The position numbers were made by a program, and so were the translations under genes. From Escherichia phage vB_EcoM_G10400: a DNA stretch of 64,000 nt. Positions 288-53,101 of this stretch are shown here, in pieces (position 1 is the stretch's first letter; each line of letters starts with the position of its first letter). The notes under the pieces were generated by a model. It had not been told where the DNA came from. It worked only from the letters and a program-made list of their open reading frames with translations, and ran no database searches. Location of the stretch: sequence record MK327937.1, one strand, 5' to 3'.

Positions 288-2267
288 ATGACTTTATTAT
301 CTCCGGGCATTGAGCTCAAAGAAACTACGGTTCAAAGCACCGTGGTTAATAACTCTACTGGTACAGCAGCTTTGGCCGGTAAATTCCAGTGGGGTCCTGC
401 TTTTCAGATTAAACAGGTTACAAACGAAGTAGATTTAGTTAATACTTTTGGTCAACCTACAGCTGAAACTGCTGACTATTTTATGTCTGCAATGAATTTC
501 TTACAATATGGAAATGATTTGCGAGTTGTGCGCGCTGTCGATAGAGATACCGCTAAAAACTCATCTCCGATTGCTGGTAATATTGAATACACAATTTCTA
601 CCCCAGGTAGTAACTACGCGGTTGGAGATAAAATCACGGTCAAATATGTTTCAGATGATATTGAAACTGAAGGTAAAATTACTGAAGTAGACGCAGATGG
701 AAAAATTAAGAAAATTAATATTCCTACTGCAAAAATTATTGCTAAAGCTAAAGAAGTTGGCGAATACCCAGCATTAGGTTCTAACTGGACTGCAGAAATT
801 TCTTCATCTTCTTCCGGTTTAGCTGCAGTAATAACTCTTGGAAAAATTATTACTGATTCCGGTATTTTATTAGCTGAAATCGAGAGCGCTGAAACTGCTA
901 TGACAGCAGTTGATTTTCAGGCAAATCTTGAAAAATATGGAATTCCAGGAGTAGTAGCTCTCTATCCAGGCGAATTAGGCGATAAAATTGAAATTGAAAT
1001 CGTATCTAAAGCTGACTATGCGAAAGGCGCTTCTGCATTACTCCCAATTTATCCAGGTGGTGGTACTCGCGCATCTACTGCCAAAGCAGTGTTTGGATAT
1101 GGACCACAAACTGATTCACAGTACGCCATTATAGTTCGTCGTAATGATGCTATTGTTCAAAGCGTTGTTCTTTCAACTAAGCGTGGTGAAAAAGATATTT
1201 ACGATAGTAACATCTATATCGATGACTTTTTCGCAAAAGGTGGTTCAGAATATATTTTTGCAACTGCACAAAACTGGCCAGAAGGCTTCTCTGGAATTTT
1301 AACTCTGTCTGGTGGATTATCATCAAATGCTGAAGTAACAGCAGGAGATTTGATGGAAGCTTGGGACTTCTTTGCTGACCGTGAATCTGTTGACGTTCAA
1401 CTGTTTATTGCGGGTTCTTGTGCTGGTGAATCTTTAGAAACAGCATCTACTGTCCAAAAACACGTCGTTTCAATTGGTGATGCTCGCCAGGATTGCTTAG
1501 TATTGTGCTCTCCTCCGCGTGAAACTGTAGTTGGAATTCCTGTAACTCGTGCAGTAGATAATTTAGTTAACTGGAGAACTGCGGCAGGTTCATACACTGA
1601 TAATAACTTTAATATCAGTTCAACCTATGCAGCAATTGATGGTAACTATAAGTATCAGTATGACAAATATAATGATGTGAATCGTTGGGTTCCATTAGCA
1701 GCTGATATTGCTGGTTTATGCGCAAGAACTGATAACGTATCTCAGACTTGGATGTCTCCAGCTGGTTATAATCGTGGCCAAATTTTGAACGTTATTAAAC
1801 TGGCTATTGAAACTCGCCAGGCTCAGCGCGACCGTTTATACCAAGAAGCTATCAACCCGGTAACCGGTACAGGTGGTGATGGTTACGTATTGTATGGTGA
1901 TAAAACAGCTACTTCTGTTCCTTCTCCATTTGATCGTATTAACGTTCGTCGTCTGTTTAATATGTTGAAAACGAATATCGGACGTAGTTCAAAATATCGT
2001 TTGTTCGAATTAAACAACGCGTTTACTCGTTCATCATTCCGCACAGAAACTGCCCAGTACTTGCAGGGAATTAAAGCTCTCGGTGGAATTTATGAATATC
2101 GTGTAGTTTGCGATACAACAAATAATACTCCGTCAGTAATTGATAGAAATGAGTTTGTTGCAACATTCTACATCCAACCGGCTCGTAGTATAAATTATAT
2201 CCAACTTAATTTCGTCGCAACTGCTACTGGTGCAGATTTTGATGAGTTAACTGGTCTTGCAGGTTAA
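288..2267 (+). CDS. 18: Tail sheath protein
   Basis: 659-aa ORF, length and sequence match T4 gp18; SD upstream. Confidence 0.95.
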   Translation: MTLLSPGIELKETTVQSTVVNNSTGTAALAGKFQWGPAFQIKQVTNEVDLVNTFGQPTAETADYFMSAMNFLQYGNDLRVVRAVDRDTAKNSSPIAGNIEYTISTPGSNYAVGDKITVKYVSDDIETEGKITEVDADGKIKKINIPTAKIIAKAKEVGEYPALGSNWTAEISSSSSGLAAVITLGKIITDSGILLAEIESAETAMTAVDFQANLEKYGIPGVVALYPGELGDKIEIEIVSKADYAKGASALLPIYPGGGTRASTAKAVFGYGPQTDSQYAIIVRRNDAIVQSVVLSTKRGEKDIYDSNIYIDDFFAKGGSEYIFATAQNWPEGFSGILTLSGGLSSNAEVTAGDLMEAWDFFADRESVDVQLFIAGSCAGESLETASTVQKHVVSIGDARQDCLVLCSPPRETVVGIPVTRAVDNLVNWRTAAGSYTDNNFNISSTYAAIDGNYKYQYDKYNDVNRWVPLAADIAGLCARTDNVSQTWMSPAGYNRGQILNVIKLAIETRQAQRDRLYQEAINPVTGTGGDGYVLYGDKTATSVPSPFDRINVRRLFNMLKTNIGRSSKYRLFELNNAFTRSSFRTETAQYLQGIKALGGIYEYRVVCDTTNNTPSVIDRNEFVATFYIQPARSINYIQLNFVATATGADFDELTGLAG

Positions 2268-2275
2268 TTGATTAT

Positions 2276-2289
2276 GGGGCTTCGGCCCC
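2276..2289 (+). terminator. Hairpin GGGGC-UUCG-GCCCC immediately after gene 18 stop
   Basis: Perfect 5-bp GC stem with UUCG tetraloop 9 nt after TAA; weak U-tract, so may be an attenuating or stability hairpin. Confidence 0.45.
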
Positions 2290-2306
2290 TATTCTCGAGG
2301 AAACAA

Positions 2307-2912
2307 GTGATTATTTCTAAGTTTGTTACAATAAAACCAAGAAATCATTCAAAAATGTGGTCGACAATTCTGGGATATAAAGTATCATATCATGATACAG
2401 TATCTGTTCCAATAGAATTAATGCCAAAGAATAGTAATAAAATAGTTGACGCTAAATGTGATTTGTGTGGTACTAAATTTAGTAGAAGCATTCAACTTTT
2501 AAATAGAACACCCACACATGCATGTAGAAAATGTAGCATTAAACAAGTTGCTATTAAAAATTCGGAAGTTCAATCTGGAATAAGCAGACCATGGCAAAGA
2601 GGCGATAAACATCCTCGATGGACTGGTAAAAGAAAAGAGTTTGCATTATATGCTAGTAGAGTTCATTCTATAACTAAGTCAGCTAAAATAAGAAAAATTT
2701 GGTCAAAATGGCCGAATGCTGATAAAATAGGAGTGTGTGGAGTAGAAGGTGCTTACCAACTCGATCATAAAGTATCTATCAAATATGGATTTGATAATTT
2801 AATTCCGCCGGAAATTATAGCAAGCGTAAAAAATTTAGAAATAATCACTTGGGAATCTAACCGAGAAAAGTCAAAAAGAAATAGCGTAGATCTTTGGGAT
2901 TTACTAGAATGA
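2307..2912 (+). CDS. HNH-family endonuclease-like protein (free-standing homing endonuclease candidate)
   Basis: Track ORF 2268-2912; likely start GTG 2307 (GAGGAAA SD 2297-2303) or ATG 2355. Two CxxC pairs (CDLCG..CRKC) and a DH..N..N motif (QLDHKVS...FDN...WESNREK) typical of HNH nucleases. Confidence 0.6.
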   Translation: MIISKFVTIKPRNHSKMWSTILGYKVSYHDTVSVPIELMPKNSNKIVDAKCDLCGTKFSRSIQLLNRTPTHACRKCSIKQVAIKNSEVQSGISRPWQRGDKHPRWTGKRKEFALYASRVHSITKSAKIRKIWSKWPNADKIGVCGVEGAYQLDHKVSIKYGFDNLIPPEIIASVKNLEIITWESNREKSKRNSVDLWDLLE

Positions 2913-2919
2913 TTCTAAA

Positions 2920-2937
2920 GGCCTGTTTCGACAGGCC
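2920..2937 (+). terminator. Hairpin GGCCUGU-UUCG-ACAGGCC after the HNH ORF
   Basis: 7-bp stem, UUCG loop, 8 nt after TGA stop. Confidence 0.45.
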
Positions 2938-2938
2938 A

Positions 2939-3005
2939 TATAAATACACTATATCCTTAATTCTTTAATTCTATATGCCCTAGGTTAAACATAGGGATAT
3001 AAATA
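2939..3005 (+). promoter_or_regulatory. Two late promoter motifs (TATAAATA at 2939-2946 and 2998-3005) upstream of gene 19
   Basis: Exact TATAAATA octamers; second is 15 nt upstream of the gene 19 ATG. Confidence 0.55.
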
Positions 3006-3019
3006 CTACAGAGGCTAAT

Positions 3020-3511
3020 ATGTTTGTAGATGATGTAACACGAGCGTTTGAATCTGGTGATTTTGCTCGACCTAACTTATTCCAAGTAGAAATTTCTTAT
3101 CTTGGACAAAATTTTACGTTCCAATGTAAAGCCACTGCTTTACCAGCTGGTATTGTAGAAAAAATTCCAGTCGGATTTATGAACCGTAAAATTAACGTAG
3201 CAGGCGATCGTACATTCGATGACTGGACTGTTACAGTAATGAACGATGAAGCTCATGATGCTCGCCAGAAGTTCGTTGATTGGCAAAGCATTGCTGCTGG
3301 TCAAGGAAACGAAATTACTGGTGGAAAACCTGCAGAGTATAAAAAGAGCGCTATTGTTCGTCAATATGCTCGTGATGCTAAAACAGTAACAAAAGAAATT
3401 GAAATTAAAGGTCTGTGGCCTACTAACGTGGGTGAACTTCAATTAGATTGGGATTCAAACAATGAAATCCAAACCTTTGAAGTAACTCTTGCTCTCGATT
3501 ATTGGGAATAA
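3020..3511 (+). CDS. 19: Tail tube protein
   Basis: 163-aa ORF matching T4 gp19 in size, sequence and position; AGAGG SD. Confidence 0.95.
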   Translation: MFVDDVTRAFESGDFARPNLFQVEISYLGQNFTFQCKATALPAGIVEKIPVGFMNRKINVAGDRTFDDWTVTVMNDEAHDARQKFVDWQSIAAGQGNEITGGKPAEYKKSAIVRQYARDAKTVTKEIEIKGLWPTNVGELQLDWDSNNEIQTFEVTLALDYWE

Positions 3512-3518
3512 AATGAAT

Positions 3519-3532
3519 GGGGAGAAATCCCC
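3519..3532 (+). terminator. Hairpin GGGGA-GAAA-UCCCC after gene 19
   Basis: 5-bp stem with GNRA loop 8 nt after stop. Confidence 0.4.
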
Positions 3533-3543
3533 ATCCTGCTTAA

Positions 3544-5168
<1,625 letters not shown>

Positions 5169-8895: not shown

Positions 8896-8910
8896 TCTTT
8901 GACGATTTAA

Positions 8911-8929
8911 GGGACCTTCGGGTCCCTTT
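8911..8929 (+). terminator. Rho-independent terminator after gene 23
   Basis: GGGACC-UUCG-GGUCCC hairpin followed by U-tract, 16 nt after stop. Confidence 0.7.
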
Positions 8930-8943
8930 AGTTGTTTTTATGG

Positions 8944-8951
8944 TATAAATA
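8944..8951 (+). promoter_or_regulatory. Late promoter TATAAATA upstream of gene 24
   Basis: Exact octamer 27 nt upstream of ATG 8979. Confidence 0.55.
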
Positions 8952-8978
8952 AATCATATAAACTGAAAGGAAAGCGCA

Positions 8979-25255: not shown

Positions 25256-27313
25256 CTACATTTTGAACTTTTTAGACATTCCGTTGATGTTAACCAAAGA
25301 AGCCAAGATTTGAGAAACTTCATTTTCCTCTTCTTTTGATTCTTCTACAAGGAATTGATTAAATCCAGCCATTGGACGAACTTCACCAGTTTCCATTAGA
25401 TGGTCTCCATCATATACTGATTCTTCTAATTGTTCAGAAGGAGGAACGATTGTACCTTCGATTAGATACTTGTTATAAGCAGTTTCTTTCATAAAGTACG
25501 TACTTACTTTATTAATCTTCAGTAAAATTCCACGTGGTAGAATAACTTCAGCTTCTGATGGAAATCCTGATAAATGACCTGGAACGATAACTTTGATTCG
25601 CTCAGCTCCTTTAATTATCATACCCACGCTAGTTTCTGCATCTTCATTAGCATATGTAGAATGACTACCCATATGCATCAAATCTTCTGCATCAACGGAA
25701 CCTTCTCCTTCACCAGAAAATACTGCGCCGGAATCATCTAGAGCCATATAGTTTTTACCATGCTCACCGAAGATATTTGGTTTAAGCGATGTGGATACGA
25801 AGTTCTTGAAATAGAACATTTTATTTTCAATGTTATGACGCAAAGTTTTAAAGGTAACTTCTTGCCCACGGTAAAGTGTAGTTCCTGGAGGAAGAACTGA
25901 TCCTTTGGCAAAGGCAGAATCTAACGTCTCGATGTGCTTAATAGCTCGTTCCATGTATTCTTCACGGGTAGAATCTGGTTTACCCAAAAGGAACGAGTTC
26001 ATTTCAACATATGAATCTGCACAATAATCTTCAATTACATCAGATTCAGCCTGAGTCAGTCCTTTTGGAGCTACTTCGGTGCTTGCGTATTCATATGCCT
26101 GGGCAGCAGATTCATTAATCAATTTATAAATGCCATTCATGACAAATTGAATAATAGCTGTCTTTTCATCTGGTGTGGTTTTAGAACCTTTAACTAAATC
26201 ATTAATAATTTTCTTAATAACATCAAAGCTATTAGAAATATTAATGTCAGCAAGATCGCTTAAAATTTTATCAGTTTTATAATCAAAGAATTCTTTATTC
26301 TTTAAATATTCTTGAGAACCTTGATATGTTATATCGCTCTGCAACTTGATAGATGGATCACGTAAACGTGCATGGGCCAATGCAATATGATTTCGGAAGC
26401 TTTCTAGTTCATAATCGTTAGATTTAAAACGAGAAGCACTTCTCATACCACCGATAGCTCCTTTGCTGAAGTTTGAACCAATCTGGATAACGCCAGAGTT
26501 CATCGGACCTTCTGCTTTATATACCGGAACTTTAGATTCAAACTCTTGATATTTCTTGGCAGCAAAGCTATCACCCTGAAGTGAAGCATCAACAGTAGAA
26601 TATTGAGCTTGTGCTGCTAATCGACGACTTATTTTAGTTTTCTGAATAACAGCTTGGTCCGTGCGCTTATCATTTTCTAAAGCAATAGAAGCAGCAACAG
26701 CGACAGCTTTAGGAACAGCATTTCCTGTTTTAACGTCTACATAAACATCACCGACCTTTGATTCAACTTTTGTGAATAACTCAGTTGAAATAGGAGGTAC
26801 ACCTGGAATGTCTTCTAAATTGGCATTTTTACGGTAAACCATAATATATGCATATTTCTTATCATAGTCCCAGATTTCCTTTAAAAGAACATATCGACCT
26901 GCTCCTTTAGTACGTACTAAACGGTCAGCAATAACTTGCATTTGACGAGCTGCGCCATTTGTTTTACTTTTTAGTACGCGGAATAGGCATGCGTCGATTT
27001 TATACTGTTTCATTGTTTGAAGAGCAGTATCAAAAACGGCATTAATGACACCAATTGGATTTCCACCCAAGTTTTTAAGCTTAACTAATGATAGTTTCTC
27101 ATTAACACCTATCATTACGATATGCATCATTTTATCGCCTGGCTTAACGTTTTTATTCGTATCACCACCAGAGGTGTATGTACAAAATCTAAATCCAGGA
27201 AGCACGCTTTCTTCGCCGGCTTGAATAGCAAAAATTTGTGGTATTTTATGCTTAGGATTTAAGTTAACAACCGGCGCCGAAGCGCCGTCAAATAATTCTG
27301 TAATAAGTTCCAT
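25256..27313 (-). CDS. alt: Alt-like ADP-ribosyltransferase (paralog A)
   Basis: 685-aa ORF; R-S-E type ART motifs near C-terminus (LYRGQ, FVSTSL, EAEVILPRG); N-terminal MELITELFD shared with neighbour. Confidence 0.85.
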   Translation of the reverse strand: MELITELFDGASAPVVNLNPKHKIPQIFAIQAGEESVLPGFRFCTYTSGGDTNKNVKPGDKMMHIVMIGVNEKLSLVKLKNLGGNPIGVINAVFDTALQTMKQYKIDACLFRVLKSKTNGAARQMQVIADRLVRTKGAGRYVLLKEIWDYDKKYAYIMVYRKNANLEDIPGVPPISTELFTKVESKVGDVYVDVKTGNAVPKAVAVAASIALENDKRTDQAVIQKTKISRRLAAQAQYSTVDASLQGDSFAAKKYQEFESKVPVYKAEGPMNSGVIQIGSNFSKGAIGGMRSASRFKSNDYELESFRNHIALAHARLRDPSIKLQSDITYQGSQEYLKNKEFFDYKTDKILSDLADINISNSFDVIKKIINDLVKGSKTTPDEKTAIIQFVMNGIYKLINESAAQAYEYASTEVAPKGLTQAESDVIEDYCADSYVEMNSFLLGKPDSTREEYMERAIKHIETLDSAFAKGSVLPPGTTLYRGQEVTFKTLRHNIENKMFYFKNFVSTSLKPNIFGEHGKNYMALDDSGAVFSGEGEGSVDAEDLMHMGSHSTYANEDAETSVGMIIKGAERIKVIVPGHLSGFPSEAEVILPRGILLKINKVSTYFMKETAYNKYLIEGTIVPPSEQLEESVYDGDHLMETGEVRPMAGFNQFLVEESKEEENEVSQILASLVNINGMSKKFKM

Positions 27314-37866: not shown

Positions 37867-39084
<1,218 letters not shown>

Positions 39085-42637: not shown

Positions 42638-43727
42638 CGTATGTTCGATTGAGTTCGCTAATTCTCAACCCGTTCTCTTATGAACTGCTGCATGTTACCA
42701 TGCAGTCCAGACTATATCACAATCCCGGAGGGATTCTCCCCATTTCGAGTCGCTTGACCCTACGTCCGAAGACTAGTCGTTGAACCTTGTTTTGCAATTG
42801 TCGCCGTGCCATCGTTTATATGTTGATGGTGATAAATCTTTCTTATCACAATATGGACAATTCAATTGAATTCTATTTGGATTTAATTTACATCTGTCAT
42901 TATGTTTTAGATAAAATCCAGGACCTTTACCAATGTGACCACAAAAATCACATGTGATTTCTTTTTGTGCAGGATGGGTCCCGTTCTTAACCATTTCTAA
43001 TGTTTTTGCTGATGTTCTTTTCTTATGGTCTTCTGATAAGAAATGATGTGAACCGTCATTTACCCGTTTTGATTGAGTTTCTGACTGCATTTTACCACCG
43101 CAAAATACATGAGTACCTTCTTTTATAGCTGCAATATTGCGTTCTTTAACTTTTGCAATATGCTCAGCTTGTTGAAAATTATGTATACCTAATGCAACTC
43201 TATTTAAATTAGATTTACGCTGTATTTCACCATCTAAAAGATGAAATGTACCATTTTCTATCTTAGATTTAATAGAGGCAATATTTTTAGCTCGTACTTC
43301 AGGGATATTAAAAATCTGGATTTCTCTAGATTTTGCGGCTTTAGAAGCTAATTCAGAAATTTCTTCAGGAGAATATTTCATTCTAAGCTTTATAGCATGA
43401 CAAGCCTTGTAATCTTTTTGAGCTAAATGTATATCATAATGTTCCTGTATAGAAAGGCACATCAAATTATCTAAATCATTATTTTCACGGTTACCGTCTT
43501 TATGATGGATTTCGTATGTTCTTCCATCAGAATCTTTAGGTATAGGTCCGTTAGCATCTATCCAAATTTTTCTATAGTTCAATTGTGCATCCTCTTAAAA
43601 GTATAATCATATTTATATTATACTAATTAAAGGTGCAAGCAAAACCTTGGCTGCTAGTTTTCCTATAAAGGACTTTCCAGCAATTAAAGGAGTTTTCGAT
43701 AAACGTTACCGTTTAAAGGCGCATTTT
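42638..43727 (-). mobile_element. Group I self-splicing intron in nrdB (about 1090 nt) carrying I-TevIII
   Basis: R2 reading frame is interrupted by about 1.1 kb containing an HNH endonuclease ORF; boundaries inferred from protein homology and U/G splice-site rules. Confidence 0.7.
42773..43582 (-). CDS. I-TevIII: Intron-encoded HNH homing endonuclease I-TevIII (full length)
   Basis: 269-aa ORF inside nrdB intron; N-terminal HNH motif (EIHHKDGNRENNDLDNL) and C-terminal Cys/His-rich zinc-finger-like region. Confidence 0.8.
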   Translation of the reverse strand: MNYRKIWIDANGPIPKDSDGRTYEIHHKDGNRENNDLDNLMCLSIQEHYDIHLAQKDYKACHAIKLRMKYSPEEISELASKAAKSREIQIFNIPEVRAKNIASIKSKIENGTFHLLDGEIQRKSNLNRVALGIHNFQQAEHIAKVKERNIAAIKEGTHVFCGGKMQSETQSKRVNDGSHHFLSEDHKKRTSAKTLEMVKNGTHPAQKEITCDFCGHIGKGPGFYLKHNDRCKLNPNRIQLNCPYCDKKDLSPSTYKRWHGDNCKTRFND

Positions 43728-44403
43728 ACGCAAAAGATACATAAAAACGAATAGCTTCTAAGGCATTAATAACGTGCAAACAGAGGTAAAGAGATTTCAT
43801 TAAAGCACGTTTAGCTTCGGCTTCTTGTTTAATAGCTCGGTTTAAACGAAAGACGGCATCAGGAGATTCTTTAGCTAGTTCTACAAATTCTTTAGCATTT
43901 TCCCATTCACGAGTTTTAATCAGAACATCATCATAATAACGTCCAATGGATTCAGCACGTTTCATAATAGCTTCATCTAATACAATCTCATCAAATACCT
44001 TTGACGGATCAGTATAAAGATTTCGCATGATATGAGTATATGAACGACTATGAATAGTTTCACTAAAAGTCCATGTAGCAACCCATGTATCAAGGCTTGG
44101 GTCTGAAATTAATGACATAAGTACAGCAGATGGCGCACGACCCTGAATGCTATCCAAAAGTGATTGATACTTCAGGTTATTAGTAAAAATATCTTGCTGA
44201 TATTGAGGAAGCTTGTTAAATTGTGCAGCATCCATCATCAAGTTTACTTCTTCAGGACGCCAGAAAAATGACAATTGCTTTTCGGTTAAATCTTCAAAAA
44301 CTTTATGGCGTTGAATATCATAACGCGCAATACCAAGACCTGAACCAAAAAACATAGGTTCTTTTAAAACATCAACTGGATTTGTATTAAAAACTGTGCT
44401 CAT
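43728..44403 (-). CDS. nrdB: Ribonucleotide reductase beta subunit, exon 1
   Basis: 225 codons ending ..LEAIRFYVSFA, homologous to R2 N-terminal half. Confidence 0.8.
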
Positions 44404-44454
44404 AAATTTTCCGCTTAGTTAATAGTTGGTGACTCGTCCGTGAGTCAAATTATA

Positions 44455-46719
44455 TCATAATTTACAGGATGAACAATCTTCAGCTTTTGGAGTTTCTATT
44501 TCATAATCATCAGTACCAGAACCATCGCGGGTATTATGATAATAGAAATTTTTAATGCCATAATACCATCCGTATAGCATATCATCAATCATTATTGACA
44601 TTGGAACCTTTCCTTTTGGAAAAATCTGCGGGTCATAATATGTATTCGCTGAAGCTGATTGACATACCCATTTCAGCATAATAGCTACCTGCGTAAGATA
44701 AGGTTTATTACCTTTCTTAGCTAATTTCCATGTATAATCATATAGGTCTATGTTATGTTCAATATTGGGCACGACTTGATTAAAGGAACCCTCTTTTGAT
44801 TCTTTAACAGAGACTGGTCCACGTGGAGGCTCGATACCGTTTGTACTGTTAGAAACTTGGGAAGATGACTCACATGGCATAAGTGCTGATAGTGTGCTAT
44901 TACGGATGCCAAAGAGCTTAAGGTCTTCCCGCAGCGACGACCAGTCACAAACGTATTTTGGAGCTGCGATTTGGTCAATCTTTTTATTGTACCAGTCGAT
45001 AGGTAATTCGCCTCGAGACCAACGAGTGTCTGAATAATATTCACAAGGTCCTTTTTCTTTGGCGAGTTTAATGGATGCTTTAATGAGTCCATACTGTAAT
45101 CTCTCAAATAGTTCATGTGTTAAATCGTTAGCATCTTCATAAGAAGCAAAGTTACTTGCCAACCAAGCTGCATAGTTAGTAACACCTACACCGAGGTTAC
45201 GACGCTTTTTAGCTTTTTCTGCTTCAGGAACTGGATATCCTTGGTAATCCAAAAGATTATCAAGAGCACGAACCTGGACTTCTGCCAATTCATTAATTTT
45301 ATCTTGGTCTTGCCAGTCAAAATTATCCAGTACGAATGCAGAGAGAGTACACAATCCAATTTCAGCATCAGGACTATTCACATCATTTGTTGGAATAGCA
45401 ATTTCACAGCACAAGTTACTCTGACGAATAGGTGCCTTTTCACGAATAAACGGAGTATAGTTATTCGTATTATCAATGAACTGTACATAAATCCTTGCTG
45501 TTCCTGAGCGTTCAGTCATGAGCAATTCAAATAGTTCACGAGCTTTAATACGCTTTTTACGAATATTAGGGTCTTTTTCTGCTGCTTCGTACAATTCACG
45601 GAAACGGTCTTGGTCTTTAAAATAAGAATAATAAAGTTCGCCACCCATTTCATGCGGACTAAACAAAGTAATGTAATCGTTCTTTCCGAATCGTTCCATC
45701 ATTAGGTCATTCAGCTGGACGCCATAATCCATATGACGGATACGGTTTTCTTCTACACCTTTGTTATTTTTCAAAACGAGAAGATTTTCAACTTCCAAAT
45801 GCCAAATAGGATAATAAGCAGTAGCAGCGCCGCCACGAATTCCACCCTGTGAGCATGATTTAACTGCAGTCTGAAAATGTTTCCAAAAAGGAATAACACC
45901 GGTATGGCGTACTTCACCCATGCCAATCTTAGAACCTTCGGCACGAATCATACCAACGTTAATACCAATTCCAGCGCGTTTAGAGATATATTCAACAATC
46001 GAAGCGGAAGCCTTATTGATAGACTTCAGCGAATCACCTGCCTCAATAACAACACATGAACTAAACTGTCGAGTCGGAGTACGACAACCAGCCATAATAG
46101 GAGTTGGTAATGAAATCTGTCGAGTAGATACTGCTTCATAAAAACGAATAACATGTTTTAATCTATCAACAGGTTCATCTTGATGCAATGCCATTCCAAT
46201 AGTCATAAATGCAAACTGCGGAGTTTCATAAATTTGACCAGTGGTTTTATCTTTAACTAAATATTTTTCTTTTAATTGCATCGCCCCGGAATAAGTAAAT
46301 TCCATATCCCGCTCGTGCTTAATTTTTGATTCTAAAAATGTAATTTCTTCTGCTGAATATTTTGACAACAATTCAGGGTCATATTTACCTGCATTTACAC
46401 AGTAAGAAATATGGTCAATAAATGAACGTGGTTCATACTGCCCATAAACATGCTTACGAAGAGCAAACATTAAACAGCGTGCAGCTACATATTGATAATC
46501 AGGTTCTTCAACCGAAATAGAATTCGCAGCAGCCTTAATGACAATAGTCTGAATATCATCAGTTGTCATTCCATCACGGAGATATGATTTAATATTTTCA
46601 TATAATTCATAAGGATCTACTGATGTTCCCTCAGATGCCCAAGATAAAACTTTAATAATTTTTTGCGGGTCAAAGCTCTGAGAAACACCACTACTTTTGA
46701 TAACATTAATTAATTGCAT
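44455..46719 (-). CDS. nrdA: Ribonucleotide reductase alpha subunit
   Basis: 754-aa ORF, size and sequence match T4 NrdA; C-terminal CxxC tail. Confidence 0.95.
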   Translation of the reverse strand: MQLINVIKSSGVSQSFDPQKIIKVLSWASEGTSVDPYELYENIKSYLRDGMTTDDIQTIVIKAAANSISVEEPDYQYVAARCLMFALRKHVYGQYEPRSFIDHISYCVNAGKYDPELLSKYSAEEITFLESKIKHERDMEFTYSGAMQLKEKYLVKDKTTGQIYETPQFAFMTIGMALHQDEPVDRLKHVIRFYEAVSTRQISLPTPIMAGCRTPTRQFSSCVVIEAGDSLKSINKASASIVEYISKRAGIGINVGMIRAEGSKIGMGEVRHTGVIPFWKHFQTAVKSCSQGGIRGGAATAYYPIWHLEVENLLVLKNNKGVEENRIRHMDYGVQLNDLMMERFGKNDYITLFSPHEMGGELYYSYFKDQDRFRELYEAAEKDPNIRKKRIKARELFELLMTERSGTARIYVQFIDNTNNYTPFIREKAPIRQSNLCCEIAIPTNDVNSPDAEIGLCTLSAFVLDNFDWQDQDKINELAEVQVRALDNLLDYQGYPVPEAEKAKKRRNLGVGVTNYAAWLASNFASYEDANDLTHELFERLQYGLIKASIKLAKEKGPCEYYSDTRWSRGELPIDWYNKKIDQIAAPKYVCDWSSLREDLKLFGIRNSTLSALMPCESSSQVSNSTNGIEPPRGPVSVKESKEGSFNQVVPNIEHNIDLYDYTWKLAKKGNKPYLTQVAIMLKWVCQSASANTYYDPQIFPKGKVPMSIMIDDMLYGWYYGIKNFYYHNTRDGSGTDDYEIETPKAEDCSSCKL

Positions 46720-49153: not shown

Positions 49154-49198
49154 TTAGTACCTTATATAAATTATAATACATTTTATGAAGCTAAATAA

Positions 49199-49558
49199 TC
49201 AATACGGTTTAGCATCAAATTTTCTCTCAATTTCAGGCGTGAAATATAATTCTTTACCGCGTTTGGAAAAGCGACCAATAATATGATAATTATTCTCATC
49301 AAACGTGATATTACCAATATCCATAGCTTTCAACCAAATATCGATATTTCTATCCAGCTTTATGTCAAAATTCCAATACGGAGAACTATTACCGAAAATA
49401 CTGCAAGCGGATTCAGTGAAACAACTGCTATAAATCTTGTCTTTAGGAACTACTAATTGATAGACACCTTTAATAAACTGAGGACCCTGCCACTTTGGCT
49501 GTTTCGCGTCTTCTTCTAATAGAATAGGGTAATAATTAAAATTCATATTTTCCGCCAC
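49199..49558 (-). CDS. Hypothetical protein between td and frd
   Basis: 119-aa ORF (GTG 49558 or ATG 49546) with no recognised motif. Confidence 0.5.
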   Translation of the reverse strand: MAENMNFNYYPILLEEDAKQPKWQGPQFIKGVYQLVVPKDKIYSSCFTESACSIFGNSSPYWNFDIKLDRNIDIWLKAMDIGNITFDENNYHIIGRFSKRGKELYFTPEIERKFDAKPY

Positions 49559-49566
49559 GTGTTATT

Positions 49567-50393
<827 letters not shown>

Positions 50394-50404
50394 ATTATCT
50401 CCTA

Positions 50405-50737
50405 TTAAAAAGGATCAGGAATATATCCGCTAGCTTTAATCATTTTAATTAACGTTAGCATTCCTTTATTAACCGCTCGTGAGATTTCATCAAAAACTTC
50501 ATCACTAAAAAGTTCTAACACACCCTTCTGAACTTTTAATTTACAGCCAACAATTTCGTCATCGCCTATAGTAAATTCATTACCACCAATTCCTCCGAAA
50601 AACTTAATTACACCAGTTAACTGTCTTCCACGAGAATATGGGTCGTGTGATAAATTAATATGAGTCACCCCGGGTACAGTTTTAAATTGGCAGCGAATGT
50701 TTACTTGGGAAATTCCAGTTACATGAATATCAGACAT
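50405..50737 (-). CDS. Hypothetical protein (frd.2 position)
   Basis: 110-aa ORF. Confidence 0.55.
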   Translation of the reverse strand: MSDIHVTGISQVNIRCQFKTVPGVTHINLSHDPYSRGRQLTGVIKFFGGIGGNEFTIGDDEIVGCKLKVQKGVLELFSDEVFDEISRAVNKGMLTLIKMIKASGYIPDPF

Positions 50738-50747
50738 AATATTTTCC

Positions 50748-51047
50748 TCAAACAGACTTTTTCACAATTTTCCAATCAGCTTTAAACTGTTCAACGTCAG
50801 AATGGTAAATCCAGAATCCTGCGCTTTCTCCATCCTCATAAAGAGGGCATCCATCACATTCATCTTCCCATCCCATATCACGCAAAAGACGTTCAGCTTT
50901 TTCAACAAGTTCAGAATCTTTACCAATAATATTAAAATACCATTTACCTCTAACTTCTGAATCTTTGATACTCTGACGTTGTAATCTCATTTTATTCTCC
51001 TTAGTTGATAAGGCTATAGTATCACTACCATAGCCTGTTGTAAACAA
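50748..51047 (-). CDS. Hypothetical protein (frd.3 position)
   Basis: 99-aa ORF. Confidence 0.55.
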   Translation of the reverse strand: MFTTGYGSDTIALSTKENKMRLQRQSIKDSEVRGKWYFNIIGKDSELVEKAERLLRDMGWEDECDGCPLYEDGESAGFWIYHSDVEQFKADWKIVKKSV

Positions 51048-51341
51048 TTATTTTTGAATTTTATCGAGCCACTTACCAAGCTTAATCATTTCTTTAGTAG
51101 CCTTTTCCATACTTCTGAACTTAACCAATAGAGGATAGGTATCGACACCCATAACTAAACTGGTTACAAGACTGTGTTCACCCACAAGCCATAACGAATA
51201 CGTTTGAATATCGAGCCCGTAATTTCTGTCTTTGTGGACCCGTACACCTATCACTTCAAATTTCTCACTAGCTTTTTCTACCGCATCCAGGAAATCATCT
51301 TTAGTCATATTAGGCCTTAAAAGTTTTTCGCAAAAGTTCAA
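51048..51341 (-). CDS. Hypothetical protein
   Basis: 97-aa ORF; start may be the internal ATG (MTKDDF..). Confidence 0.5.
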   Translation of the reverse strand: MNFCEKLLRPNMTKDDFLDAVEKASEKFEVIGVRVHKDRNYGLDIQTYSLWLVGEHSLVTSLVMGVDTYPLLVKFRSMEKATKEMIKLGKWLDKIQK

Positions 51342-53002: not shown

Positions 53003-53101
53003 TTTTATTTCCTTTTTAATTTAATTAACAGTTGGTGCTATGACGATGTATGACCTCATAGCTGGTCAATGAGATAATTATAATCTATTTATAATAAGCA
53101 A
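53003..53101 (-). promoter_or_regulatory. Gene 32 leader: late promoter TATAAATA (53086-53093) and A/U-rich UUAAA-repeat translational operator
   Basis: Minus strand reads ..TATAAATA..GCACCAACUGUUAAUUAAAUUAAAAAGGAAAUAAAAAUG, resembling the gp32 autoregulatory operator. Confidence 0.5.

Follow-up and report, generated by a model that had tools for sequence, protein, structure and literature searches.

A probable free-standing homing-endonuclease cassette between the tail sheath and tail tube genes of T6-like Tequatrovirus phages

In phage T4 the genes for the tail sheath (gene 18) and the tail tube (gene 19) are separated by a spacer of 116 nucleotides (nt) that contains no gene (NC_000866), as the original prediction for the locus studied here had stated. 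In Escherichia phage vB_EcoM_G10400 (MK327937.1), of which a single stretch of 64,000 nt (the window) was analysed, gene 18 ends at position 2267 and gene 19 starts at 3020, and the question arises as to what the additional DNA between these two genes is. The original prediction, made from the sequence alone, was that an HNH-type gene for a free-standing homing endonuclease lies in this spacer. Our analyses support this core claim: the DNA at 2268-2911 is probably a free-standing homing-endonuclease cassette in the gene 18-19 spacer of T6-like members of the genus Tequatrovirus, which would spread by the mechanism proposed below. This interpretation draws on the exact boundaries of the insertion, its sporadic occurrence, the selection acting on its gene, and a predicted D-H...N...N core whose modelled fold resembles that of HNH nucleases.

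The region is part of a Tequatrovirus segment that is 99.9% identical to vB_EcoM_G4507 and ~98% identical to T6. Alignment of its gene 18-19 spacer to that of T4, a check that had been proposed with the original prediction, delimits the insertion exactly: a cassette of 644 nt (2268-2911, + strand) is present in place of 8 nt, TACGGTGC, and a blastn comparison of the window with T4 leaves 2269-2911 as the unmatched part of the locus. The same spacer alignment indicates that gene 18, the T4 hairpin and both late promoters were left intact by the insertion. The ancestral hairpin that follows gene 18 (GGCCTG-TTTCGA-CAGGCC; 2920-2937, + strand), whose context is identical in T4 (loop TTTCGG), now lies displaced 644 nt downstream of gene 18, and the two T4-type late promoter boxes of gene 19 (TATAAATA; 2939-2946 and 2998-3005, + strand) have the same sequence in T4. 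The earlier statement that the late promoters of gene 19 were retained is therefore correct, whereas the hairpin at 2276-2289, which had been taken for that of gene 18, lies inside the insert and is missing from T4.

This stem-loop (GGGGC-UUCG-GCCCC; 2276-2289, + strand) is located right behind the gene 18 stop, folds locally, and is found alike in the T6-type and RB3-type cassettes described below; because T4 lacks it, it was brought in by the insert. It is not a canonical intrinsic terminator, because no run of U follows it, and terminator prediction over 2000-3100 called no terminator at this hairpin. We infer that it serves the RNA as a 3'-end or stability element, or else that it dampens read-through into the nuclease gene. 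Taken whole, the 81-nt leader folds no better than shuffled sequences (z = -0.71). A motif scan places the nearest upstream late promoter box before gene 18 (252-259, + strand); between 259 and 2939 the + strand holds no TATAAATA box, leaving the cassette without a late promoter of its own, and a scan of 2000-3100 for sigma-70 promoters and terminators returned nothing above shuffled expectation. Since the cassette has no late-promoter box, its expression would occur by read-through of the gene 18 late transcript. The cassette of phage VR26 (2107-2330 of its locus) also opens with a GC-rich hairpin directly behind the gene 18 stop (GGGGA-TGAAAG-TCCCC), which the empty relatives of VR26 lack; the open reading frame (ORF) of VR26 lies downstream of a late-promoter box, and its insertion point in the spacer is thus unlike that seen in Tequatrovirus.

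The ORF that had been reported at 2268-2912 (+ strand) exists as a maximal ORF, and its first position is not the start of the gene. Upstream of the hairpin, Ptacy1496, PP01 and RB3 have indels of 1-4 nt that break the frame from TTG 2268, while the GTG at 2307, which is the annotated start in T6, is conserved and followed by an intact frame in all eight carriers sampled; hence, the true gene is 2307-2912 (+ strand, stop included) and encodes a protein of 201 amino acids (aa). A Shine-Dalgarno-like GAGGAAA (2297-2303, + strand) precedes the GTG by 6 nt, counted from the end of GAGG, and GAGGAA[A/T] is present in 8 of the 8 sampled carriers. The protein is 99.5% identical to ORF19.1 of T6, which has the same GTG start, and it matches PHROG 5104 (E=4.2e-82, residues 14-213 of the maximal ORF), a profile matched by every one of the 53 family members tested. 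The codon differences among T6-type alleles (5-9 synonymous vs. 0-2 non-synonymous) indicate that the ORF19.1-type gene is intact and under purifying selection, and that it is not decaying.

The occurrence of this gene among close relatives is sporadic. Junction-spanning queries of 499 Tequatrovirus records identified 117 occupied junctions (T6, PP01, PST and RB3 among them) and ~382 empty ones (including T4, T2, RB14 and RB32), the ORF being absent from ~77% of the records, and the flanks of occupied and empty records are 95-100% identical. Sixty-nine of the occupied junctions carry a T6-type cassette and the remainder an RB3-type cassette. The proteins of the two types are only 49% identical overall, and the flanking genes 18 and 19 are >98% identical; because two alleles this divergent share one junction between such flanks, vertical descent cannot explain their distribution. 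A comparison of the window with RB3 in bins of 30 nt shows that the 5' leader and first 10 codons are ~97% identical, that identity in the segment encoding aa 11-133 (2338-2704, + strand) is 27-67% per bin (about half overall), so low that the two types are effectively unrelated there, and that 2705-2912, which holds the nuclease core, is 70-97% identical per bin (~88% overall). The T6-type and RB3-type sequences would accordingly represent one nuclease domain with a swapped N-terminal DNA-binding half. Such modularity, the sporadic occurrence and the exact intergenic boundaries are classic signs of a free-standing homing endonuclease gene.

Homologues located between the sheath and tube genes are also found in Dhakavirus (UP19 and Bp7), in the VR26 group (where VR26 is a carrier and its two close relatives are not), in T4-like phages of Klebsiella (~40 of 160 records), in Acinetobacter phages and in Aeromonas phage AS-zj, and a homologue in Sinorhizobium phage phiM7 is placed behind the sheath gene. 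This distribution bears on a second explanation, viz. that the protein is a domesticated or accessory sequence-specific HNH-like nuclease which is kept for the benefit of the phage, for example because it cuts the DNA of co-infecting relatives (interference competition), of the host or of a defence element, conversion of its own locus being incidental. Purifying selection and the intact ORFs of all sampled carriers agree with such a role, as does the constancy of the sheath-tube position across Tevenvirinae, Emmerichvirinae (AS-zj) and Emdodecavirus (phiM7), and homing endonucleases with roles in competition or anti-defence are described in two publications (PMC11620839, PMC13096335). Nevertheless, we consider a domesticated nuclease unlikely, in view of the large majority of Tequatrovirus records that lack the gene (T4, T2, RB14 and RB32 among them), the two divergent alleles swapping at one site, which fit site-specific invasion better than a conserved benefit, and the lack of any sign of another target.

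Some of these relatives have further peculiarities at the locus. In Klebsiella phage vB_KpnM_17-11 (MW239157), the order within 1887-5165 is gene 21, gene 19, the ORF19.1 homologue and gene 18, all on one strand; the possibility that this 19-X-18 order reflects an order-independent link of the homologue to the gene pair was set aside, as it occurs in 1 of 274 records and probably stems from misassembly or from a rearrangement private to this phage. Phage Bp7 carries a second annotated HNH endonuclease gene between genes 19 and 20 (3769-4731 of its locus). Its portal gene is annotated in two pieces, and a split portal annotation is present in Ptacy1496 as well (3300-3626 of its locus).

The C-terminal part of the protein contains an HNH-like core of the beta-beta-alpha-metal type (aa 145-190; 2739-2876, + strand; residues numbered from GTG 2307), with the stretch YQLDH...NLEIITWESNREK. 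Four residues, viz. D153 and H154 (2763-2768), N176 (2832-2834) and N185 (2859-2861), are the sole invariant columns in an alignment of 53 diverse relatives and are likewise invariant in 41 close homologues. From this pattern, D153-H154 are predicted to be the general-base Asp-His, N176 the structural Asn and N185 the metal-ligand Asn of an HNH motif of the H-N-N type. A HMMER search of 1.84 billion cluster representatives with a profile of the domain recovered 3836 relatives at E<=1e-3, and the family comprises at least 3836 clusters at 50% identity; this large family has no Pfam model. AlphaFold modelled the full-length protein with a predicted local distance difference test (pLDDT) value of 88.6 and the domain alone with 87.4 and a predicted template modelling (pTM) score of 0.75. 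The model has the beta-hairpin and alpha-helix of the metal-finger fold, and its strands 150-154 and 177-181 and helix 182-190 hold D153, H154, N176 and N185. Its best fold matches are the HNH nucleases Gme HNH (4h9d) and GVE2 HNH (5h0o), both weak (Z <=5). The only Pfam HNH model touched in the family is HNH_4, at E=0.078 in 1 of the 41 close homologues and at 3.5e-4 in 2 of the 53 distant members. The HNH-like assignment is thus supported by motif, fold and family context. Among the relatives, one protein of 3759 aa contains 10 separate matches to the nuclease-domain profile and another of 268 aa contains two tandem copies, repetition that is unusual for the catalytic domain of a homing endonuclease.

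The original prediction had named two features as characteristic of an HNH nuclease, the DH...N...N core and a set of paired CxxC motifs, and only the former belongs to the nuclease. The cysteines (C51, C54, C73 and C76; 2457-2534, + strand) form a CxxC...CxxC zinc finger of the treble-clef type within an N-terminal domain (aa 1-89) that is presumed to bind DNA. The possibility that they bind the structural zinc of an HNH core, or of one of the Endo VII type, was rejected, as they lie in a separate, confidently modelled domain, which weakly matches the DUF4379 'treble clef' model and the mitoribosomal protein mS66; even the nearer pair, C73xxC76, is 77 residues upstream of the DH. In the two-domain model of the protein, a treble-clef zinc finger forms the N-terminal domain and an HNH-like nuclease the C-terminal one. 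Other members of the family have the nuclease domain joined to NUMOD3, HTH or DUF7487 modules, and modular fusion of this kind is typical of homing endonucleases.

A candidate for the target of this protein lies in gene 18. Of the 26 differences between the window and T4 in the last 600 nt of this gene, 12 fall within a single 30-nt bin of a hypervariable, almost wholly synonymous patch at its 3' end (codons PARSINYIQLNFVA; 2178-2219, + strand; 49-90 nt before the cassette). The peptide encoded by this patch, PARSINYI(T/Q)LNFVA, is highly conserved. The synonymous spike, located 61-90 nt before the stop of gene 18, is found again beside the cassette in a total of three genera. In this bin VR26 differs from each of its two empty relatives at 13 nt, while the empty pair differ from each other at 1, and UP19 and Bp7, which have different alleles, differ at 12. 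Among the Tequatrovirus loci sampled, T6-type cassettes are accompanied by one patch haplotype and most RB3-type cassettes by another, and the T4 haplotype (~250 records) is nearly always found in empty genomes. A chimeric query identified a cassette next to a T4-type patch in four carriers (sb1, sb2, sb3 and Ec_YwIITB1), and the two that were fetched, sb2 and sb3, have an intact RB3-type allele; strict immunity conferred by the gene 18 patch was rejected on account of these four carriers. Empty genomes with the other haplotypes also exist, T2 having an RB3-type and RB14 a T6-type patch. On sequence grounds, the patch is a candidate for the recognition or cleavage site or for a co-conversion scar, since it resembles the recoded target site that would be expected, or else a co-conversion tract ending at a cut site. 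The alternative candidate is the empty junction itself, which is split by every cassette.

The homing explanation that we favour would operate as follows. Having no promoter of its own, the cassette would be transcribed late, when transcripts from the late promoter of gene 18 run on through its UUCG hairpin, and the GTG would initiate translation at a low level. If the same cell is also infected by a phage whose junction is empty, the N-terminal domain would bind either in the empty spacer or at a site within or close to the 3' end of gene 18, and the nuclease domain would nick or cut the empty-junction DNA. Recombinational repair on the carrier template would then copy the cassette into the recipient, along with markers of genes 18 and 19 that lie close to it. 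Two features, singly or together, would protect the carrier from cleavage: the splitting of the empty junction by the cassette and the synonymous recoding of the nearby part of gene 18.

Several of our results weigh against this explanation. The profile search that had been proposed for recognizing an HNH domain did not do so: a Pfam scan of the window protein gave no HNH model at E<=1, an NCBIfam scan of the relatives gave no HNH model and only a Cas9 model (0.0061) in one member, and the Pfam, NCBIfam and PHROG scans of the protein and its 41 or 53 relatives yielded no usable HNH assignment, with DUF4379 as a weak match. Neither the full-length nor the nuclease-core profile reached a solved HNH structure among PDB sequences, the matches being to zinc-finger proteins, spurious ones to leucine-rich repeats through 'P.EIG.I.NL', and one to Cas9 (E=0.94). 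Foldseek found nothing significant in the PDB, and hhalign comparison of the core profile showed no relation to the I-TevIII-like ORF of the window (probability 0.4%) or to T4 MobE (0.1%). All three patch haplotypes are seen in both empty and occupied genomes (T2, RB14 and sb1-3), for which reason the patch gives no simple immunity. The same sheath-tube position is occupied in the very distant phages phiM7 and AS-zj, and the gene could, as an alternative to homing, be an old accessory gene that is often lost. Lastly, the literature searched contains no cleavage or homing data for an ORF19.1-type gene.

The profile results also bear on the possibility that the cassette encodes what is left of a homing endonuclease, decaying or catalytically inactive, or else a regulator that binds DNA and has kept the fold without the activity. 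The lack of a match to any curated HNH profile is in keeping with this possibility, as are the presence of Asn instead of His as the final metal ligand, an HNH core devoid of zinc-binding cysteines, and the tolerance by sb1-3 of a T4-type gene 18 patch beside the cassette (with an intact allele in sb2 and sb3). A dead enzyme is quite improbable, however, given that the 53 diverse relatives, taken from 3836 clusters, all have D-H, N and N, that the ORFs are intact, and that synonymous changes far outnumber non-synonymous ones; moreover, H-N-N variants are active in HNH domains of the Cas9 type.

The structural matches raise yet another possibility, viz. that the protein is a terminase-associated HNH factor of the HK97 gp74 or GVE2 HNH type that aids the packaging of DNA. 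Of the structural matches, the best two are members of this class or similar to it, and in the gene order 17-18-X-19 the gene lies two genes downstream of the terminase gene 17. This explanation is very hard to sustain: the protein consists of 201 aa in two domains with a separate zinc finger, vs. chains of 92-97 residues in the best matches, it has no match to PF01844, and most close relatives, T4 among them, lack the gene and yet package normally. T4-type phages package their DNA by the headful mechanism with gp17's own nuclease.

The homing explanation can be extended to a broader proposal, which we put forward tentatively and regard as doubtful. In this proposal, an unrecognised homing-endonuclease family (D-H...N...N, at least 3836 clusters) would have specialised on the sheath-tube junction of T4-like phages across subfamilies, and in Tequatrovirus two domain-swapped alleles would compete, each usually accompanied by its own recoded 'PARSINYI' segment of gene 18. 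The domain swap would then represent retargeting in an arms race with target-site immunity.

Apart from the gene 18-19 cassette, the window differs from T4 at a number of other places. In the nrdB region (42773-43582, - strand) it has a full-length ORF of 269 aa matching HNH_3 (6e-13), where T4 has a truncated, defective I-TevIII, and 476 nt of the window (43034-43509) are missing from T4. Three intergenic endonuclease loci of T4 are replaced by short spacers in blastn comparisons with T4: segD, between genes 23 and 24 (8906-8967), nrdB.1 and mobE, between nrdB and nrdA (44403-44459), and segG, between genes 32 and 59 (53065-53101). An extra ORF of 685 aa (25256-27313, - strand) contains an ADP-ribosyltransferase domain (PF03496, 4.5e-20) and has ~69% nt identity to part of T4 alt; T4 retains only the alt.-1/-2/-3 remnants at this position, and the ORF is thus a second Alt-like gene in the window phage. 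Four short segments in the pseT and td/frd/gene 32 regions (38769-39081, 49157-49558, 50165-50680 and 51005-51316) have no counterpart in T4; of the small ORFs in them, 50405-50737 (- strand) is a DUF7247 protein and the others have no Pfam match.

Free-standing homing endonucleases are a known kind of selfish phage gene, and the family described here is probably unstudied. A review of T-even mobile elements makes no mention of genes 18 or 19, the tail sheath or tube, phage T6 or '19.1' (PMC2988022). Table 5 of another study lists one 'other HNH' for T6 and none for RB3 (PMC2993671); because RB3 has the same nuclease domain, the ORF19.1 family was probably not recognised there. We found no paper on an ORF19.1-type gene in the literature searched. 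The labels attached to T6 ORF19.1 and PHROG 5104 are limited to 'ORF19.1', 'hypothetical protein' or 'unknown function', public records almost always call the gene 'hypothetical', and a few recent ones bear an HNH or homing endonuclease label without evidence. Intronless homing and the partial exclusion of markers between related phages are both studied with the T-even phages as the model system. If the enzyme is active, a further nuclease family would join the T-even set, a new localised exclusion zone would be predicted around genes 18 and 19 in crosses of T6-like phages with T4, and the two alleles would provide a natural pair, with one nuclease domain and two DNA-binding halves, suited to the study of specificity change. 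Recognition of a nuclease family of 3836 clusters that has no Pfam model would also help to annotate many phage proteins that are now called 'hypothetical'. Experiments would be best directed at the two domain-swapped alleles and at the patch that recurs in gene 18.

The cassette can be compared with several known nuclease systems. The Mob family of T4 (MobA-E) and I-TevIII, of the HNH_3 type, likewise belong to the HNH superfamily, occur sporadically in T-even phages and combine a nuclease with a zinc finger, and the Mob genes are likewise free-standing and intergenic; these endonucleases are expected to spread in mixed infections through the repair of double-strand breaks (PMC2790892, PMC2988022). 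Their HNH_3 domain is N-terminal and their DNA-binding modules C-terminal, whereas in the cassette protein this order is reversed, with the finger N-terminal and the nuclease C-terminal, and the cassette protein does not match HNH_3 (PF13392), which the I-TevIII-like ORF of the same window does match. The HNH domain of Cas9 (HNH_4) and the small HNH nickases (viz. Gme HNH, GVE2 HNH and SciA of T5) share with the cassette protein a core of the beta-beta-alpha-metal type, in which D-H provides the general base, one Asn is structural and another Asn is the last ligand. Unlike them, the cassette protein has a 21-residue spacer with two short helices between DH and NL, extra helices (109-132) before the core, and a fused treble-clef finger. 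The proteins of the HK97 gp74-like class are small, single-domain HNH proteins encoded beside terminase genes and found group-wide; the cassette protein differs in having two domains, in being encoded behind the sheath gene, and in being absent from ~77% of close relatives.

F-CphI of cyanophage S-PM2, which belongs to the DHHRN (Endo VII motif) group, is likewise a free-standing phage homing endonuclease with a C-terminal catalytic domain of the beta-beta-alpha type. The DHHRN family is missed by standard HNH models and is defined by DHDH (with a second His), an invariant Arg, and CX2-4C and CX2C motifs that directly flank the core (PMC6083498). The cassette protein has DH[K/I][V/I][S/P] with no second His, no core-flanking cysteines and no equivalent invariant Arg. 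The closest parallels in function are the GIY-YIG enzymes SegF, SegG and SegE, each encoded by an intergenic gene beside an essential gene, which in crosses of T4 with T2 cut the neighbouring gene of the endonuclease-less phage and co-convert flanking markers, resulting in localised marker exclusion (PMC2988022, PMC2993671). The Seg enzymes are of an unrelated fold (GIY-YIG), and their activity and targets are demonstrated where those of the cassette are predicted from sequence; they serve as its functional analogue.

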